Source: Thermococcus sp. (GTDB taxonomy: Archaea > Methanobacteriota_B > Thermococci > Thermococcales > Thermococcaceae). From it: a stretch of DNA of 64,000 bases. Below the pieces are notes generated by a model. That model was given only the letters and a program-made list of their open reading frames with translations. It was not told the DNA's origin and searched no databases. Positions 1-20,538 of the stretch are shown here, one piece after another. Position 1 is the stretch's first letter. Each line of letters opens with the position of its first letter. The stretch spans positions 21,003 through 85,002 of the forward strand of contig NZ_JALSLB010000059.1 of assembly GCF_026988555.1 (NCBI RefSeq), written 5' to 3'. The translations under genes and the position numbers were made by a program.

Positions 1-600
1 CAAAAAATTCACCTGGTTGAGGACAGGAAGGGCCTCGTCCGATACAGGAGGGGCAACATCGAACGGCTCATAAAAGGGGATGGAGAGGTACTCAAACTGC
101 TCCCCGCCCCTGCTGTGGGCTACGGTGTGTCCCTGCTTATGGTAAAGCTGAGGGAGAGAATAGTGGTTCCGCCGAAGGGCTCCTTCCAGGGTTTTCTAGA
201 TGTGCCGGTGGAGATAGACGTCGAGATAGGGAACCTATCCATAGACCATTTTATCGTCGGCAGGGAAAAATACGCACTCTATGGAACTATAGAGAACGGG
301 AAGATAGCCCGATACCACGTGGGACCATTTTACGTGGATGAACCCGAGGCAATGGGCATTGCAAAGGTCATCCTCTCTAACCCAACGAAGGAATGGAAGG
401 GCCTGGACAGGATCATTTTCCCCATAAGGGGAAGCACGATGTACTACAAGGGGAACAGGGCGTATTATCCACTCATCTTAATCACGTTGAAGGATCATTT
501 TCCAGAGGTCAACAACACGGGGAAGGCCCCTGTTGAGGGGGCGGTTAGGGTCGGAAGCGGGGAGCCCCTGCCCAACTTCAGGATGAGGTGGGAGGGATGA
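1..600 (+). CDS. Hypothetical protein, 5'-partial (frame open to the window edge)
   Basis: Frame 1 has no stop from nt 1, so the GTG at 115 in the ORF track is probably internal. The stop TGA overlaps the next gene's ATG (ATGA at 597-600). It may belong to an archaeal DUF family, but I cannot name one with certainty. Confidence 0.5.
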   Translation, partial: QKIHLVEDRKGLVRYRRGNIERLIKGDGEVLKLLPAPAVGYGVSLLMVKLRERIVVPPKGSFQGFLDVPVEIDVEIGNLSIDHFIVGREKYALYGTIENGKIARYHVGPFYVDEPEAMGIAKVILSNPTKEWKGLDRIIFPIRGSTMYYKGNRAYYPLILITLKDHFPEVNNTGKAPVEGAVRVGSGEPLPNFRMRWEG

Positions 601-11356: not shown

Positions 11357-12167
11357 TGAAAAGCCTTCTGAGCTTTCCCCTTTTCCTGAGCTCATGGGAC
11401 ACCTCCAGGCTTGCTGGAATCCTGACACCGAGCCTCTCCAAGAGTTCGACCTCCTCCATGACTTCAGCGGGGGTTCCTTCAAGGACCACCCTGCCCGCGT
11501 CCATCACAAGAACCCGGTCGGCGTGTCTAAGGATGTAATCGGTGTGGTGCTCCACAAGGACGATGGTTATCCCGTGCTCCCTCCTCAAAAGCGAGAGAAG
11601 GCCCAGCACTTCATTCTTGCCCAGAGGGTCAAGTTGTGAGGTTGGTTCATCCAGAACAAGTACCTGCGGCCTCATGGCGAAGGCCGCGGCTATTGCAAGC
11701 CTCTGTTTCTGGCCCCCACTCAGGTTCGGAGGGAATTCATTTTCAAGCCCTTCAAGCCCCGAGACCTTCAGTGCCCACCTGACCCGTCGCCATATTTCAT
11801 TGGGATCAAGACCCAGGTTCTCTAGGCCGAAAGCAACCTCCTCCTCAACGGTCATGTTGAACAGCTGACTGTCCGGGTTTTGGAGTACAAGCCCCACTAG
11901 TGAGGAGATTCTTGAAACGGGGGCCTCCCTGGTGTCCAGCTCTTCCCCATTGATGCCCCTAACGACCACGCGTCCCTCGAATTCTCCTTTTATGGAGTTC
12001 GGGATAATACCGTTGAGGGTCAGACAGAGGGTCGATTTACCGCTACCGCTTGGACCGATCACACCCAGAAACTCGCCCTTCTTAACATTAAAGCTCACGT
12101 CTCTGAGGGCGTAATCGCTGGCTCGCCGGTATTTGAAGCTCAGGTTCTCCACGGAGATAACGTTCAT
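11316..12167 (-). CDS. ABC transporter ATP-binding protein, ECF/CbiO-like, with no cognate permease nearby
   Basis: Walker A GPSGSGKST, Q-loop region QNPDSQLF, signature LSGGQKQR and Walker B VLVLDEPT are all present. Its ATG overlaps the TrkH stop (ATGA at 12164-12167). Confidence 0.9.
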   Translation of the reverse strand: MNVISVENLSFKYRRASDYALRDVSFNVKKGEFLGVIGPSGSGKSTLCLTLNGIIPNSIKGEFEGRVVVRGINGEELDTREAPVSRISSLVGLVLQNPDSQLFNMTVEEEVAFGLENLGLDPNEIWRRVRWALKVSGLEGLENEFPPNLSGGQKQRLAIAAAFAMRPQVLVLDEPTSQLDPLGKNEVLGLLSLLRREHGITIVLVEHHTDYILRHADRVLVMDAGRVVLEGTPAEVMEEVELLERLGVRIPASLEVSHELRKRGKLRRLFINPEELLSELRSS

Positions 12168-13645
12168 CTCCTCTTCACCACCCGTGGGGCCAGGAAGAAG
12201 ACGCTGAGTATGAAAACCAGTGTAGAGAATACCTCAAGCCTCCCGACCCACATGTGCATTATCAGGAGCAGCTTCATGTCCAGAGGAAGGGAAGGAGAAG
12301 TGATTCCAACGCTCAATCCAACGTTGCCTTGAGCGGAGGCGATCTCAAAGAAGGCATCCACCAGTTTAACGTGCAGACGGAGCATCGTGTAAACGGTTCC
12401 AAGGAGGAGGATCGCGAGGTACGTCATCGTAAAGCCCATGACCTCCTGGACGTCCGACTCCGTGAAGACGTAGTTGCCGACCTTTCTTTTGATGACCGCA
12501 CCCTTGGGAAGTATCGCCTGCTCCAAGGTCCATTTAAGACTCTCATACATAAGGGTGATGCGGATGAGCTTTATACCGCCTGCGGTGCTTCCAGCACCCC
12601 CTCCTATGACCATCAGGATACCCAGCATGAACTTCGCGAGCTCCGGGTAGTGGGAGAGGTTCGCGATTCCAAAACCGGTACACGTTATAGCCGATACCGA
12701 ATGGAACACCGCCTGTCTCAGCGCCTGGGACACCGTATCACCGGACTGAAAGAGGGAGAAGGAGATTATAGCAATGGTCGGGATCAGGAAGAGGAACATG
12801 TACCTGACCTGGATGTCATCGAAGAAAGGCTTCAGGTGTTTGTCCCTGAAAACACGGTAGTGAACCGTGAAGTTGACGGCGCCCATTATCATAAGGAATA
12901 TTGTCACGGCCTCAATGGCGGTGCTGTGGAAATAGCCGATACTCTGGTCGTGACTGCTCATACCACCGGTCCCAAGACCCGTCATTGAGTGGACCACGGC
13001 ATCGAAGAGGTTCATACCGTTTATGTAGTAGAGGTACACACCAAGCACCGTGAGGACGGCGTATATCGCAAATATGGCCTTGGCGGTGTTCACAAGGTTC
13101 GGGAGGATCCGCTCGGTTCTCGCCTCTGCCTTGTAAAGTCTGGCGGCCGCCACCCCTGGCCGGATGAGTATCGTGAGTGCCACAAGCACGATGCCGACCC
13201 CACCAAGCCACTGCATCCACGCCCTCCAAAACAGCAGGATATGGGGATAGCTCTCAAGATGGCTCATCATTGTCAAACCGGTTCCGGTCCATGCACTCAT
13301 GCTCTCAAAATACGAGTCTATAAATGACATCTTGGCTATCTTCATGAAGGGAACGACGCTTACGGCGGATGCGGTGAGCCATACGAAGGCCGCGGATATC
13401 ATCGCCTGTCGGAGGTTGACGTCCTCCACCTTGCCCATGTGTCTTGAGAGCCACGCCCCGAAGAGTATGCTTAGGACACCGGGTACCGCAAAGTAAACGG
13501 AGTACCTGATTTCATCGGGGTAGAACCACGTGAGGAGCACCGGGAACAGGTAAGCGATGCCAACACCTTGAAGTATGACACCTATCAGGTTCTTCACGAC
13601 AAACAGGTCGTCCGCTATGTTGATGTACTTTCCAAGCTCCCGCAT
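12164..13645 (-). CDS. trkH: TrkH/KtrB-family potassium uptake membrane protein
   Basis: About 493 aa from the ATG at 13645 (MRELGKYINIADD...), polytopic, with repeated selectivity-filter-like motifs (SAWTGTGL, MTGLGTGGM, AITCTGFG, SAQGNVGLS). The track start at 13810 would run across the map promoter region. Confidence 0.85.
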   Translation of the reverse strand: MRELGKYINIADDLFVVKNLIGVILQGVGIAYLFPVLLTWFYPDEIRYSVYFAVPGVLSILFGAWLSRHMGKVEDVNLRQAMISAAFVWLTASAVSVVPFMKIAKMSFIDSYFESMSAWTGTGLTMMSHLESYPHILLFWRAWMQWLGGVGIVLVALTILIRPGVAAARLYKAEARTERILPNLVNTAKAIFAIYAVLTVLGVYLYYINGMNLFDAVVHSMTGLGTGGMSSHDQSIGYFHSTAIEAVTIFLMIMGAVNFTVHYRVFRDKHLKPFFDDIQVRYMFLFLIPTIAIISFSLFQSGDTVSQALRQAVFHSVSAITCTGFGIANLSHYPELAKFMLGILMVIGGGAGSTAGGIKLIRITLMYESLKWTLEQAILPKGAVIKRKVGNYVFTESDVQEVMGFTMTYLAILLLGTVYTMLRLHVKLVDAFFEIASAQGNVGLSVGITSPSLPLDMKLLLIMHMWVGRLEVFSTLVFILSVFFLAPRVVKRR

Positions 13646-13674
13646 GGACCCACCGTAGGTTAAGGGTCTCACCG

Positions 13675-13685
13675 TAATATAAAGG
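13675..13685. promoter_or_regulatory. Candidate shared TATA element for divergent trkH (-) and map (+)
   Basis: TAATATAAAGG lies about 30 nt upstream of the trkH ATG (13645). It lies about 60 nt upstream of the map GTG (13743, RBS GGTGAT at 13732). Confidence 0.35.
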
Positions 13686-13739
13686 TTTTCTCCCATGGAA
13701 AGGTTTAAGGGGTTCTGGAAAATCCCCCTTTGGTGATAG

Positions 13740-14630
<891 letters not shown>

Positions 14631-14744: not shown

Positions 14745-14830
14745 TGGCGCCGGGGCAGGGATTTGAACCCTGGTGGGCAGAGCCCACTGGATCTCGAGTC
14801 CAGCGCCTTCCCAAGCTAGGCTACCCCGGC
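14745..14830 (-). tRNA. tRNA-Ser (anticodon CGA), CCA encoded
   Basis: Hand fold: acceptor GCCGGGG/CCCCGGC, D stem GCCT/AGGC, anticodon stem CTGGA/TCCAG with loop CTCGAGA. It has a long variable arm (GGGC/GCCC), T arm CAGGG-TTCAAAT-CCCTG, discriminator G and CCA. Confidence 0.92.
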
Positions 14831-14870: not shown

Positions 14871-15015
14871 TTAAGCATTTATATTTAACATGTCGAGTAT
14901 ACAGGCTACATAGAACCCGCGTACAGCCCAAGTGTCCAACAACCACATTATAAAGACCACTGCAAAGGTTTAAATCCACCAGTGCCGTAGTATACTAACG
15001 AAGGAGGTGGCAGGA

Positions 15016-16191
15016 ATGGTCGGTATTCCGGTGCAGGAGGTTATGACCGAAGGCTACAGAAAAGTGGACATCGAGGCACCGCTTTCTGAGGCGATAGGAA
15101 TCTTCGAGAAGGAAGACCCTGACCTGATTCTTGTGTTTGAAGGGAAAAACTACAAAGGTGTCCTGACCCAGGACCTCATAATTCGCTCCCACCTGAAGTG
15201 GGACCCGACCAAAGCCAAGGTTAAAGACGTTTACAAGCCAGCCCCCGTTATCGGGCCGGAAGAAGACGTTAGCAAGGCGGCCAAACTGATGATGGAGGTT
15301 GACCTCAGATCCCTGCCGGTTGGCCCGGACAGGAATAAAATAAGGGGAGTTATAAGCGATGTGGCCCTCCTGGCAAAAGCGGCCGAGAAGGAGTTTGGAA
15401 AGAAGAGCATATCCGAGTACATGACGCAGGACGTCATAACCCTCGGACCCGGCGACACAGTGGCGAAGGCATTTGCAACGATGAGGGACCACGCAATATC
15501 CAGGATACCAGTGGTCAACGGGGAGGGACGGCTTGAAGGACTCGTTACGCTACACGACCTCATAATACGGTTCATCAGGCCACGCTTCAAAGCCCAGCTC
15601 GGAGAAGTCGTCGGGGAAAAGGTTCCCCCCTTCAGCACGCCCCTGAGGGACGTCATGATACGGGGGGTAATAACCGCCCGCCCGGACTCCACGGTTAGGG
15701 AAGCCATAGAGGTAATGAGGGATAACGACATAGACGGCTTAGTGGTGGTAGATGAGAGTGACCGCGTTAAGGGTGTGCTAACCGTTAAGGACCTCCTGCT
15801 CCCGATATCAAGGATGGTCGAGAAGGAGGCGAAGTTCTACCTGCAGCTCGGAGGAGATGCGGCGATCCTGAGCGATTTCACGCGGGAGCGGATTATAGAG
15901 GATGTTAAACGTTTCGTGAAGGGGTACGAGGACATGCTGGGAAACGAGGGGATCATCTACCTTTACATACGGCGCTTCAACGAAAAGTTCCGTGGCGTGC
16001 ACCTGTACCAAGCAAGGATGCGCGTGGTTACAGATAAGGGAATCTACATAGCCACGGGAGAAACGTGGGGGGCCATACAGGCTGTTCATGACGGTCTACG
16101 GGCAATAGAGAGGCAGATACTCCAGAAGGTGGAGCTGGAAAAGGACAAAAGGTACTACAAGCGGTTCCTTGAGAGGATGGAGCTCGGGTGA
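15016..16191 (+). CDS. Four-CBS-domain protein with a C-terminal HPF/RaiA (S30AE)-like domain
   Basis: The ATG at 15016 lies 6 nt after AGGAGGTG. Four CBS motifs cover residues ~5-270. The C-terminal ~120 aa resembles ribosome hibernation factors (see finding). TATA AAAGGTTTAAATCC at ~14964. Confidence 0.85.
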   Translation: MVGIPVQEVMTEGYRKVDIEAPLSEAIGIFEKEDPDLILVFEGKNYKGVLTQDLIIRSHLKWDPTKAKVKDVYKPAPVIGPEEDVSKAAKLMMEVDLRSLPVGPDRNKIRGVISDVALLAKAAEKEFGKKSISEYMTQDVITLGPGDTVAKAFATMRDHAISRIPVVNGEGRLEGLVTLHDLIIRFIRPRFKAQLGEVVGEKVPPFSTPLRDVMIRGVITARPDSTVREAIEVMRDNDIDGLVVVDESDRVKGVLTVKDLLLPISRMVEKEAKFYLQLGGDAAILSDFTRERIIEDVKRFVKGYEDMLGNEGIIYLYIRRFNEKFRGVHLYQARMRVVTDKGIYIATGETWGAIQAVHDGLRAIERQILQKVELEKDKRYYKRFLERMELG

Positions 16192-16197
16192 GGGGGC

Positions 16198-17301
16198 TCA
16201 GCCCCTTATGAACTCCCTTTCTAGGAGTTTTTCCTGCCTGGGATCCAGTGAATCCGGGTTTATCGTCAGTATCACACTTCCACCCCGCGCCATGAGCAAA
16301 TCCTTCAGGGTGGTCAGAAATTTAAAGGCGGAGTCAAACCCGTTTTCCACCGCCATGTACTCGAATGCATCAACGCACAGTATCCTGTACCCCTTGTTTA
16401 CTGCCTTGGCGACCAGATCAAGCAGTATCCCGATGTTCGTCGGGCTCACGGCATAAATAGCCGGTTTCTCGTTTATAAGCCCCTCTCTAGCCCTCGTAAC
16501 CCAGAAAACGAGAGCATCAGGGTGGAGCTGGGCTTTCAAAACCTCTGGATCCTCCCTGGTTACCATCACAAGGGCAGGGTCCACCATCAGGCTTCCAAGG
16601 CGCTTTCTGATCCCCTCCCTGCTCGGAAACATGTACGCACCGGGTGTTATGTCCACGATACGTGCGCTCTCCGGTTCCCCGATGGGATAGAATATGAACT
16701 TTAAAGCTCCAAGGGCCGCCGCCAGCCTGAAGAGAGCCGCCGCGAAGAACGCCATGGTGGAGTACCACTGTACTGAACGGCCCACAGGGTAGGTGAGGTT
16801 GAGTGCACCCAGGAGCATCAAACCCCAGGGGAACAGCTCCTCGATATGGTGCCTGGGCACCACATAGTCGCGGAGGACAAACCCAAGATATATGAGCGAG
16901 AGCCCCAGGGCCAGAGACGGGAAGGAGGACTTAATGGCAAAGTTGTCCTCACCAAAGGCGTTGGCAGCAAGGAGGAACAGCCATACGTAAGAGGCAACCG
17001 CAAGAACCCCAAACAGCACCACGTGCCGAAACTCACTCTTCTTGTACTTCAGGTGAAGCGCACCCCATGACAGGAGGAGGGCTATGGCGAAGTTTGGTAT
17101 CTTGGAGGCCACATCGTAGGCCCCCTTCACGATATGGATCCCCAGAGGGTTAAGGATGTAGCTTTCAATGTTCAGACCGTCAATAAAGAACGCCATTGAG
17201 AGGAGAGCCCAGCTCTTCTCGTGGGTTTTTGCGGCCTTGTATGCAACGGCCATGAAGAGAATCCATCTGGAGACCAGGTTAAGGAGGGAAATTGGATTCA
17301 A
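16198..17301 (-). CDS. Membrane protein with a C-terminal DUF835-like cytoplasmic domain
   Basis: 367 aa. About 7 N-terminal TM helices are followed by a soluble domain (VFWVTRAREG...GYRILCVDAFEYMAVENGFDSAFKFLTTLKDLLMARGGSVILTINPDSL). From memory this is typical of Thermococcales DUF835. Confidence 0.75.
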   Translation of the reverse strand: MNPISLLNLVSRWILFMAVAYKAAKTHEKSWALLSMAFFIDGLNIESYILNPLGIHIVKGAYDVASKIPNFAIALLLSWGALHLKYKKSEFRHVVLFGVLAVASYVWLFLLAANAFGEDNFAIKSSFPSLALGLSLIYLGFVLRDYVVPRHHIEELFPWGLMLLGALNLTYPVGRSVQWYSTMAFFAAALFRLAAALGALKFIFYPIGEPESARIVDITPGAYMFPSREGIRKRLGSLMVDPALVMVTREDPEVLKAQLHPDALVFWVTRAREGLINEKPAIYAVSPTNIGILLDLVAKAVNKGYRILCVDAFEYMAVENGFDSAFKFLTTLKDLLMARGGSVILTINPDSLDPRQEKLLEREFIRG

Positions 17302-19360: not shown

Positions 19361-19458
19361 CTCAACACCAGAAAAGATAAAGTTTTCGAAGGTGCTGGCG
19401 AACCTTTAAATACTCGCCCGAAAAGCTAATCACCGCGAGAAAACAAGAGGTGAGAGAG

Positions 19459-20538
19459 ATGAAGAATCCATTCGAGAAGATGCCGACGGTGCTTACCGCT
19501 GATGAGCTCATCGACAAGGCGTTTCGAAGGGCTGAGAAGGCGGCCTCAGCTTTCACACCTAAGGGAGGACCCAAGGCCAAGGCAAGGGGGAGGGAAGAGT
19601 TAAGGGTTAGAACGGTCTCAAACGTGCTGCGCGACAACCTGAAAAAGCTCTTAGACCGGACACCAGGCGTCTCTGAGCTTCCGGAGTTCTACCGTGAGTT
19701 GGTTGATACCCTCGTCAATAGGGGCCAGTTTCACCGCTCGCTGGGAAGGGTCAACTGGGCCATAAAAACAATCCGAACCCTTGAACAGAGGTACGTGGAG
19801 AAAATCCGGTACTCGAGGGATCCGATGGAGATATCCAAGCTGAGGCGGGCGTACTACGGGAGGATAGCCAGCATTATCAAGGACATAGCAGATGACCTTG
19901 AGTACCTCAATCAGGCGAGGAACGCACTCAAAAACCTACCCGTCATTGACCTGGAACTTCCTACGGTCGTCATAGCGGGCCATCCGAACGTGGGCAAGAG
20001 CACCCTCCTGCGTGCCTTAACGAACGCTAAGCCGGAGATCGCCACGTATCCCTTCACCACCAAAGGCATAAACGTCGGCCAGTTCGAGGAGCACTACCTG
20101 AAATACCAGGTCATAGACACACCGGGTTTGCTCGACAGGCCGCTGAGCGAGAGGAACGAGGTCGAGAGGCAGGCCGTTCTTGCCCTGAAACACCTCGGCA
20201 GGGTCATCGTCTACATCTTCGACCCCAGCGAGTACTGCGGGTACCCCGTGAGTGAGCAGACCCACCTGTTCGAGGAAATCTACGCCGAGTTCGGCGAGTT
20301 CCCCTTCATCGTTGTCCTCAACAAGGTGGACATAGCGGACGAGGGGCACATTAAGGCCGTTGAAGAATTCGTCCGCTCCAAGGGGCTCGAACCCCTCAGA
20401 ATCTCGGCTCTGAACGGTGAGGGTCTGGATGAGCTGAAGAGACATGTCATTGAGCTGGTCAAACCGATGGTTGAGGAGCAGGCAAGGAAAATAATGGAGA
20501 AAGAGCTGCGGAAGTATAGGGACGAGCTGGAGCTCTGA
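19459..20538 (+). CDS. NOG1-family GTP-binding protein
   Basis: The ATG at 19459 follows GAGGTGA. G1 GHPNVGKST, G3 DTPG and G4 NKVD are present. The N-terminal NOG1-type helical domain begins MKNPFEKMPTVLTADELIDKAF. Confidence 0.85.
   Translation: MKNPFEKMPTVLTADELIDKAFRRAEKAASAFTPKGGPKAKARGREELRVRTVSNVLRDNLKKLLDRTPGVSELPEFYRELVDTLVNRGQFHRSLGRVNWAIKTIRTLEQRYVEKIRYSRDPMEISKLRRAYYGRIASIIKDIADDLEYLNQARNALKNLPVIDLELPTVVIAGHPNVGKSTLLRALTNAKPEIATYPFTTKGINVGQFEEHYLKYQVIDTPGLLDRPLSERNEVERQAVLALKHLGRVIVYIFDPSEYCGYPVSEQTHLFEEIYAEFGEFPFIVVLNKVDIADEGHIKAVEEFVRSKGLEPLRISALNGEGLDELKRHVIELVKPMVEEQARKIMEKELRKYRDELEL

Follow-up and report, generated by a model that had tools for sequence, protein, structure and literature searches.

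A four-CBS protein of Thermococcus with a C-terminal HPF/RaiA-like domain is very probably the orthologue of the archaeal ribosome hibernation factor HibA

The question raised by the locus described here is whether a protein that joins four CBS motifs to a domain resembling the hibernation factors HPF and RaiA is an archaeal ribosome hibernation factor. The protein is encoded on the forward strand of a 64,000-nucleotide stretch of Thermococcus sp. DNA (contig NZ_JALSLB010000059.1, positions 21,003 to 85,002), referred to here as the window. A preliminary description, made by eye from the letters of the DNA, had read the gene as such a fusion and had suggested a ligand- or energy-gated ribosome-binding factor. 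Archaeal ribosome hibernation was an open question until 2024-2026, and the combination of an HPF/RaiA plug with an AMPK-gamma-like CBS tetrad ties bacterial hibernation to CBS energy sensing. Our analysis identifies the gene, with high confidence, as the orthologue in Thermococcus of HibA (AHA in Haloferax), a two-module archaeal ribosome hibernation factor. The practical outcome is that hibA is the correct annotation, instead of 'CBS domain protein' or 'IMP dehydrogenase'.

The open reading frame (ORF) proved to be real, with 391 codons and a stop codon at 16189-16191, and its product is 100% identical to the recorded protein P0001 of 'Thermococcus sp.'. Pfam recognized the four CBS motifs as four stretches of PF00571 in residues 1-268 (E=1.9e-43), ahead of the C-terminal domain as had been read by eye. 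The full-length AlphaFold2 (AF2) model agrees with this module, since its Foldseek matches are CBS tetrads. In this predicted structure the module appears closest in fold to SriA (1.5e-22), MJ1225 (2e-19), AMPK-gamma (about 1e-18) and Dri (4.6e-18), with SriD also matched. Both CBS3 (G175/T178/D181) and CBS4 (G253/T256/D259) carry a G-h-h-T-x-x-D motif that does not vary among 28 Thermococcales, and from these motifs we predict that adenine nucleotides bind at the CBS3/CBS4 interface, as is known from orthologues.

Two further elements of the N-terminal module deserve mention. The long loop between CBS3 and CBS4, RFKAQLGEVVGEKVPPFS, shares 14 of its 18 residues with RFKAQYGELAGEKIPPFS, the loop of Pyrococcus abyssi HibA that enters the peptidyl-transferase centre (PTC). 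Its residues R190, F191, A193, G196, E197, G200, E201, K202, P204, P205, F206 and S207 do not vary among 28 Thermococcales. In the full-length model residues 195-208 adopt no regular secondary structure and residues 191-200 have a mean predicted local distance difference test score (pLDDT) of 61, while residues 269-272, between the two modules, are the sole segment with a pLDDT below 50. A hinge of low confidence and a disordered loop in the 190s are what would be expected of a tethered two-module protein, and such a hinge fits the three CBS-module orientations seen on the ribosome in the orthologue. Insertion of the loop into the PTC has been demonstrated for the orthologue only, and by analogy the loop studied here could behave likewise.

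Direct sequence searches with the C-terminal domain did not lead to HPF. The hmmscan comparison with Ribosomal_S30AE that the preliminary description had put forward gave no PF02482 match at E<=10, either for the whole protein or for its C-terminal 123 residues. The NCBIfam scan returned no match for the domain and Pfam nothing credible in residues 269-391, where weak Hrs_helical and E217_gp28 matches below cut-off were dismissed as coiled-helix noise. A phmmer search against all PDB sequences (E<=10) retrieved two archaeal CBS-fused homologues, 9sr9_H and 9l96_a, and no HPF chain; matches to Rab21, GCN2 and an M20 peptidase (E about 0.4) were taken as chance. With the domain alone, a word-indexed homologue search recovered five Thermococcales fragments only. 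Exhaustive phmmer comparison with 1.84 billion cluster representatives yielded 97 relatives at E<=1e-3, some of them proteins of about 370-400 residues in which the domain occupies about 270-390, others standalone proteins of 105-140 residues.

The relationship emerged from structure and from a family profile. An AF2 model of residues 269-391, built on an alignment of 30 Thermococcales sequences, had a mean pLDDT of 90.6 and displayed the order beta1, alpha1, beta2, beta3, beta4 and a long alpha2. The secondary structure assigned by eye agrees with it, as KFYLQLGG, the DFTRERIIEDVKRF helix, IYLYIRR, ARMRVV, IYIATGE and the GAIQAVHDGLRAIERQ helix are all in place; the peptide cited at that time is present exactly, and position 15832 corresponds to the codon of K273. 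When this model was compared with the PDB by Foldseek, the top 25 matches were all bacterial or chloroplast HPF/RaiA/YfiA/pY chains (probability 1.00), and the first unrelated fold, PelC, appeared at rank 26. For the best matches E values went down to 3.2e-6, with target-normalized TM scores of 0.61-0.80 and root-mean-square deviations of 2.3-4.5 A, and aligned identity to the HPFs was 8-19%. The library used ran to 2026-04-08 and 9sr9 was not among its results.

A family profile made from the C-terminal domain and 31 short relatives was then compared with the PDB sequences. It matched 9sr9_H (5.7e-35), 9l96_a (6.7e-28) and, beyond these two, HPF/RaiA-family chains only (14 of 14), headed by Thermus thermophilus HPF (8e-4) and followed by Escherichia coli HPF (3.4e-3 and 4.9e-3) and RaiA/YfiA. 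Scanned one by one, 19 of the 32 family members touched PF02482, the best with 4.2e-5. Foldseek and the family profile thus both match HPF/RaiA, and the kinship of the C-terminal domain with these proteins is remote and weak but specific. The HPF 'signature' that had been read by eye has no significance as a direct sequence comparison, but the resemblance is real at the level of fold and profile; inspection of the raw sequence recovered a true remote homology that standard Pfam scanning missed.

Orthology to HibA was evident over the full length of the protein, which matched PDB 9sr9 chain H with E=6.8e-199 over residues 1-390. The sequence of this chain, also present in seven further entries (9sra-9srf and 9t7h), carries the label 'Dehydrogenase' and is that of the P. 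abyssi protein (P0109; UniProt Q9UYR4). Over 391 residues the protein is 75.7% identical to P. abyssi HibA, the C-terminal domain reaching 80.5% and the CBS module 73.5%, and its identity to Thermococcus barophilus HibA (F0LKU5) is 76.7%. With the C-terminal domain as query, one 50%-identity cluster only was found below 1e-30, the next relative showing 38% identity, and therefore the Thermococcales hold a single orthologous group. No hibA or CBS paralogues were found in the window. The residues of the archaeal-specific beta2-beta3 hairpin are invariant across 28 Thermococcales. Position agrees with sequence: the order ABC ATPase, TrkH, methionine aminopeptidase, tRNA-Ser, hibA, DUF835, NTP-transferase/hexapeptide and BacA is also found in T. 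barophilus, T. cleftensis and a 92%-identical relative, and in part in T. kodakarensis and T. siculi; the hibA neighbourhood of Pyrococcus differs from it. Domain architecture, fold, profile-level HPF homology and orthology by sequence and position are thus established for the window protein, which possesses all the defining features of HibA/AHA that can be looked for in a sequence.

The preliminary description had left open whether this architecture had been characterized. Its characterization dates from October 2025; at least two groups published on it in 2025-2026, and structures are in the PDB. HibA was named and described by Madru et al. (Nat Commun 2026; PMC13324472), who found it by cryo-electron microscopy on 70S ribosomes of P. 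abyssi cells under cold and oxygen stress, on about three quarters of the 'hibernating-like' particles. Its C-terminal domain lies in the 30S channel for mRNA and tRNA, as does bacterial HPF, in contact with h44, h28, h24 and h23 and with uS12, uS9, uS19, uS11, uS7 and eS28, and on the 50S subunit its CBS module was observed at three sites, namely the PTC, uL5 and the L1 stalk, with insertion of loop 190-207 into the PTC in the first of these states (PMC13324472). Recombinant HibA gives the same ribosome states and binds 30S alone too; translation in P. abyssi extract was inhibited by HibA and not by the CBS module alone; and deletion of hibA in T. barophilus doubled the regrowth lag from stationary phase and lowered the 70S pool by about 60% (PMC13324472). 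The Haloferax volcanii homologue AHA (HVO_2384) was found independently (Souza et al., preprint 2026; PMC12934967), with the same two-module binding mode and an HPF homology backed by HHpred and Foldseek. The CBS-HPF architecture has been reported in about 47% of archaeal genomes and turned out to be the most widespread archaeal answer; for the most part, a given archaeal genome has either HibA or the standalone CBS families.

By analogy with these orthologues, we infer the same role for the window protein, including ribosome binding, inhibition of translation, preservation of 70S and AMP binding. It would most likely act as a single-polypeptide clamp on both subunits, in which the C-terminal domain would be the plug of the 30S mRNA/tRNA channel and the CBS module the part that binds the 50S subunit and adenine nucleotides. 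Under stress or in stationary phase, the HPF/RaiA-like domain (residues about 273-387) would bind the 30S decoding region and mRNA channel, where it would overlap the anticodon ends of the tRNA sites, whereas the four-CBS disc, tethered by the hinge, would fill vacant 50S tRNA positions at the PTC (through the 190-207 loop), at uL5 or at the L1 stalk. Because one polypeptide would grip both subunits, the inactive 70S ribosome would be kept together and translation blocked, with the functional sites shielded from degradation. The CBS3/CBS4 interface would bind adenine nucleotides, AMP being preferred, and as growth resumes the factor would be displaced by mRNA and tRNA.

Compared with the P. 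abyssi and T. barophilus HibA proteins, the window protein has the same length, collinear architecture, four-CBS module, PTC loop, hinge and HPF/RaiA-like domain, and the neighbourhood of the gene is as in T. barophilus; about 24% of the residues are changed, mostly in the CBS module, and the palindromic box found upstream of their genes is missing. AHA has the same two modules, the HPF domain occupying the A/P region of the 30S subunit, the CBS tetrad sitting on the 50S subunit and a loop lying in the PTC (PMC12934967), but shows only distant sequence similarity to the window protein. The two characterized factors also differ from each other, in that AHA carries two AMP and places its CBS tetrad at the A/P-tRNA sites and PTC, whereas P. 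abyssi HibA shows three conformations and no native nucleotide. PDB 9l96_a, a 'CBS domain-containing protein' of 406 residues, is a further distant homologue; it matches the window protein along its length, in two segments covering query residues 6-200 and 195-375 (E=2.6e-35 for the whole protein), and the C-terminal domain alone matches it with E=4e-9.

With the bacterial and plastid HPF/RaiA proteins (YfiA, protein Y, pY) the window protein shares the fold, as judged by AF2 and Foldseek, and a sequence relationship at profile level; the HibA orthologue also occupies the same 30S mRNA/tRNA-channel site, with largely conserved rRNA contacts. However, identity is only 8-19% and the window protein has no PF02482 score. 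There are archaeal-specific insertions at beta1-alpha1 and in the beta2-beta3 hairpin, and the terminal helix is longer. The domain is fused to an N-terminal CBS tetrad instead of standing alone or being joined to the C-terminal dimerization domain of long HPF, and HibA stabilizes 70S, with no 100S dimers reported. Because the protein is below the PF02482 threshold and has the two insertions, the longer terminal helix and the CBS-tetrad fusion, we place it in an archaeal HibA branch and not among the canonical S30AE proteins. Dri of Pyrobaculum, SriA-D of Methanosarcina, ARC-A/P of Methanolobus, AMPK-gamma and MJ1225 all have the four-CBS disc fold and bind adenine nucleotides but are devoid of an HPF/RaiA domain. 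Dri shares the long CBS3-CBS4 insertion as well, yet its CBS module sits on the PTC in the opposite orientation.

Sequences upstream of the hibA orthologues were aligned, and 340 nt per locus were compared. The ATG at 15016 is taken as the start codon, although an in-frame GTG at 15007 would be an alternative; the ATG is favoured because every orthologue begins with MVGI and because GGAGGTG lies 6 nt upstream of it. This Shine-Dalgarno-like sequence is invariant in a five-species alignment and is found at -12 to -14 in seven of eight Thermococcales hibA loci. In seven of the eight loci compared the sequence AGGTTTAWAT occurs at -47 to -53, and its counterpart in the window, AGGTTTAAAT, is a putative promoter element. 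The palindrome TTTAnTAAC-N5-GTTAnTAAA, with one mismatch in each case, is located 86-99 nt before the ATG in six other Thermococcales (P. abyssi, P. furiosus, T. barophilus, T. kodakarensis, T. cleftensis and T. siculi). Since Thermococcales hibA is stated to be controlled by the heat-shock repressor Phr (PMC13324472), we regard the palindrome as a candidate Phr operator. It was absent from the 340 nt upstream of the window hibA when up to 4 mismatches were allowed, and from the whole 64 kb when two versions of it were searched with up to 3 mismatches; it was also absent upstream of hibA in the 92%-identical relative. At the equivalent place there is a different inverted repeat, GTTAAGCATTTATATTTAAC in the window and GTTAAGCA-CAGA-TGCTTAAC in the relative, and the AGGTTTAAAT and GGAGGTG elements are kept downstream.

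Other explanations of the protein are suggested by database names and by its CBS module. Going by the source names of several orthologues ('inosine-5-monophosphate dehydrogenase', 'Dehydrogenase'), it would be a metabolic enzyme or regulator; another candidate is an HhpR-like CBS-only transcription regulator. The protein does give weak NCBIfam matches to IMP dehydrogenase (68.1 bits) and HhpR (62.5 bits). Yet both matches lie in the CBS region only and far below the cut-offs of 481.5 (TIGR01302) and 520 bits, that to TIGR01302 spanning only model positions 85-198, which are the CBS insert. Pfam finds neither a catalytic IMPDH barrel nor a DNA-binding domain, HhpR belongs to another CBS-module family (CM-3) without an HPF domain, and the PDB chain called 'Dehydrogenase', 9sr9_H, is the very chain described as HibA on the ribosome (PMC13324472). 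Both candidates were rejected on domain content, and we consider an enzyme or regulator of this kind virtually excluded. The names 'IMP dehydrogenase' and 'dehydrogenase' of HibA orthologues are a misannotation inherited from the CBS pair of IMPDH; records P0005, P0006, P0075 and P0109, together with PDB 9sr9_H, are still named 'inosine-5-monophosphate dehydrogenase' or 'Dehydrogenase'.

Whether HibA is gated by energy, so that an AMP-bound, low-energy state engages the ribosome and ATP at CBS3/CBS4 drives its release, bears on the first suggestion made for this gene. Nucleotide binding by the orthologue bears out one half of that suggestion: the P. abyssi CBS module binds AMP, ADP and ATP with dissociation constants of 12, 65 and 113 uM but neither GTP nor GMP (PMC13324472). 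Ribosome-bound Haloferax AHA carries two AMP at AMPK-gamma-like sites (PMC12934967), the related standalone-CBS ARC complex is reported to be mobilized or released by ATP, the CBS module resembles AMPK-gamma in fold, and in Thermococcales, the window protein included, CBS3 and CBS4 have unchanging G-h-h-T-x-x-D motifs of the ribose-binding kind. The gating half fared less well. No nucleotide was visible on native complexes of P. abyssi HibA with the ribosome, saturating AMP or ATP (5 mM) left the set and distribution of bound conformations unchanged apart from one minor extra state with ATP, and in the authors' own words neither nucleotide had a clear influence on binding to the ribosome (PMC13324472). 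These tests are not decisive because they were run at equilibrium without competing mRNA or tRNA, and we hold energy gating to be rather less likely than not.

It has also to be considered that the protein acts in DNA replication or recombination, besides or instead of hibernation, or is sequestered there with its nucleotide state setting the amount of free HibA. Pull-down and mass-spectrometry partners of the HibA orthologues Pab0961 and TK1186 are recombination and replication-initiation proteins, for which sequestration has been proposed (PMC13324472), and the Pyrococcus gene lies a few kb from MCM. This evidence comes from interaction screens only, whereas the ribosome role has been directly shown for orthologues, and the Thermococcus neighbourhood, that of the window included, is without replication genes; we judge such a role improbable. 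The pull-downs may nevertheless leave room for a second function. This limits the assignment of the window protein as a hibernation factor, as do its lack of any PF02482 score and the absence of the candidate operator, on account of which expression control may differ here. Nothing contradicts the explanation of the gene as a HibA orthologue. A four-CBS, HPF/RaiA-like, ribosome-binding hibernation factor is supported by Foldseek, by the family profile, by the 76% identity to HibA and by the experiments on orthologues. It is conceivable, if rather doubtful, that HibA is an adenylate-charge switch for the ribosome or for a sequestering partner, or that this lineage lost the palindromic box and has hibA under a different, possibly constitutive, control. 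Apart from this possible lineage-specific change in the upstream regulatory box, the locus adds no new biology.

Table 1. Features of the hibA locus. Positions are those of the window, except for the secondary structure elements, which are numbered within the C-terminal domain (domain residue 1 is protein residue 269).
Feature	Position	Strand	Description	Basis
hibA coding sequence	15016..16191	+		ORF and translation; full-length match to PDB 9sr9_H, E=6.8e-199
N-terminal CBS module	15016..15819	+	residues 1-268; four CBS repeats arranged as two Bateman pairs	Pfam PF00571
Long CBS3-CBS4 loop	15583..15636	+	residues 190-207 (RFKAQLGEVVGEKVPPFS)	counterpart of P. abyssi HibA 'PTC loop'
Flexible hinge between modules	15820..15831	+	residues 269-272	pLDDT below 50 in full-length model
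HPF/RaiA-like domain	15832..16176	+	residues about 273-387	AF2 topology, Foldseek, profile search
beta1	domain 5-12		KFYLQLGG	AF2 model
alpha1	domain 19-35		DFTRERIIEDVKRFVKG	AF2 model
beta2	domain 43-57		includes IYLYIRR	AF2 model
beta3	domain 60-71		includes ARMRVV	AF2 model
beta4	domain 75-83		IYIATGETW	AF2 model
alpha2	domain 85-119		begins GAIQAVHDGLRAIERQ	AF2 model
Shine-Dalgarno-like GGAGGTG	15003..15009	+	6 nt before ATG	read from sequence
TATA-box-like element AGGTTTAAAT	14966..14975	+	50 nt upstream of ATG	read from sequence
Inverted repeat GTTAAGCATTTATATTTAAC	14871..14890			
tRNA-Ser(CGA) gene	14745..14830	-	between methionine aminopeptidase and hibA	
Methionine aminopeptidase gene	13743..14630	+		Peptidase_M24
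TrkH ORF	12164..13810	-	548 residues from TTG	mechanical ORF
DUF835 membrane-protein gene	16198..17301	-	convergent with hibA	
NOG1-type ribosome-biogenesis GTPase gene	19450..20538	+		

The neighbouring genes (Table 1) offered some additional observations. The tRNA-Ser(CGA) gene is divergent from hibA, and therefore a promoter region of 185 nt is common to both. T. barophilus, T. cleftensis and T. siculi have the same tRNA upstream of hibA, its place being taken by a pair of PIN-domain genes in T. kodakarensis. Two translation-related genes are found near hibA, those for methionine aminopeptidase and the NOG1-type GTPase, with no evidence for their co-transcription with it; the adjacency of the aminopeptidase gene and hibA is conserved in Thermococcus but not in Pyrococcus. 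On the other side of the aminopeptidase gene, the TrkH ORF as called mechanically overlaps the start of this divergent gene. TrkH orthologues have 492-494 residues, and therefore translation probably begins about 55 codons further downstream, which would leave no overlap. Downstream of hibA, the DUF835 gene ends 6 nt past the stop codon of hibA. The convergent downstream genes of P. abyssi, P. furiosus and T. kodakarensis extend about 25-45 nt into the 3' end of hibA, leaving no room for a separate terminator.

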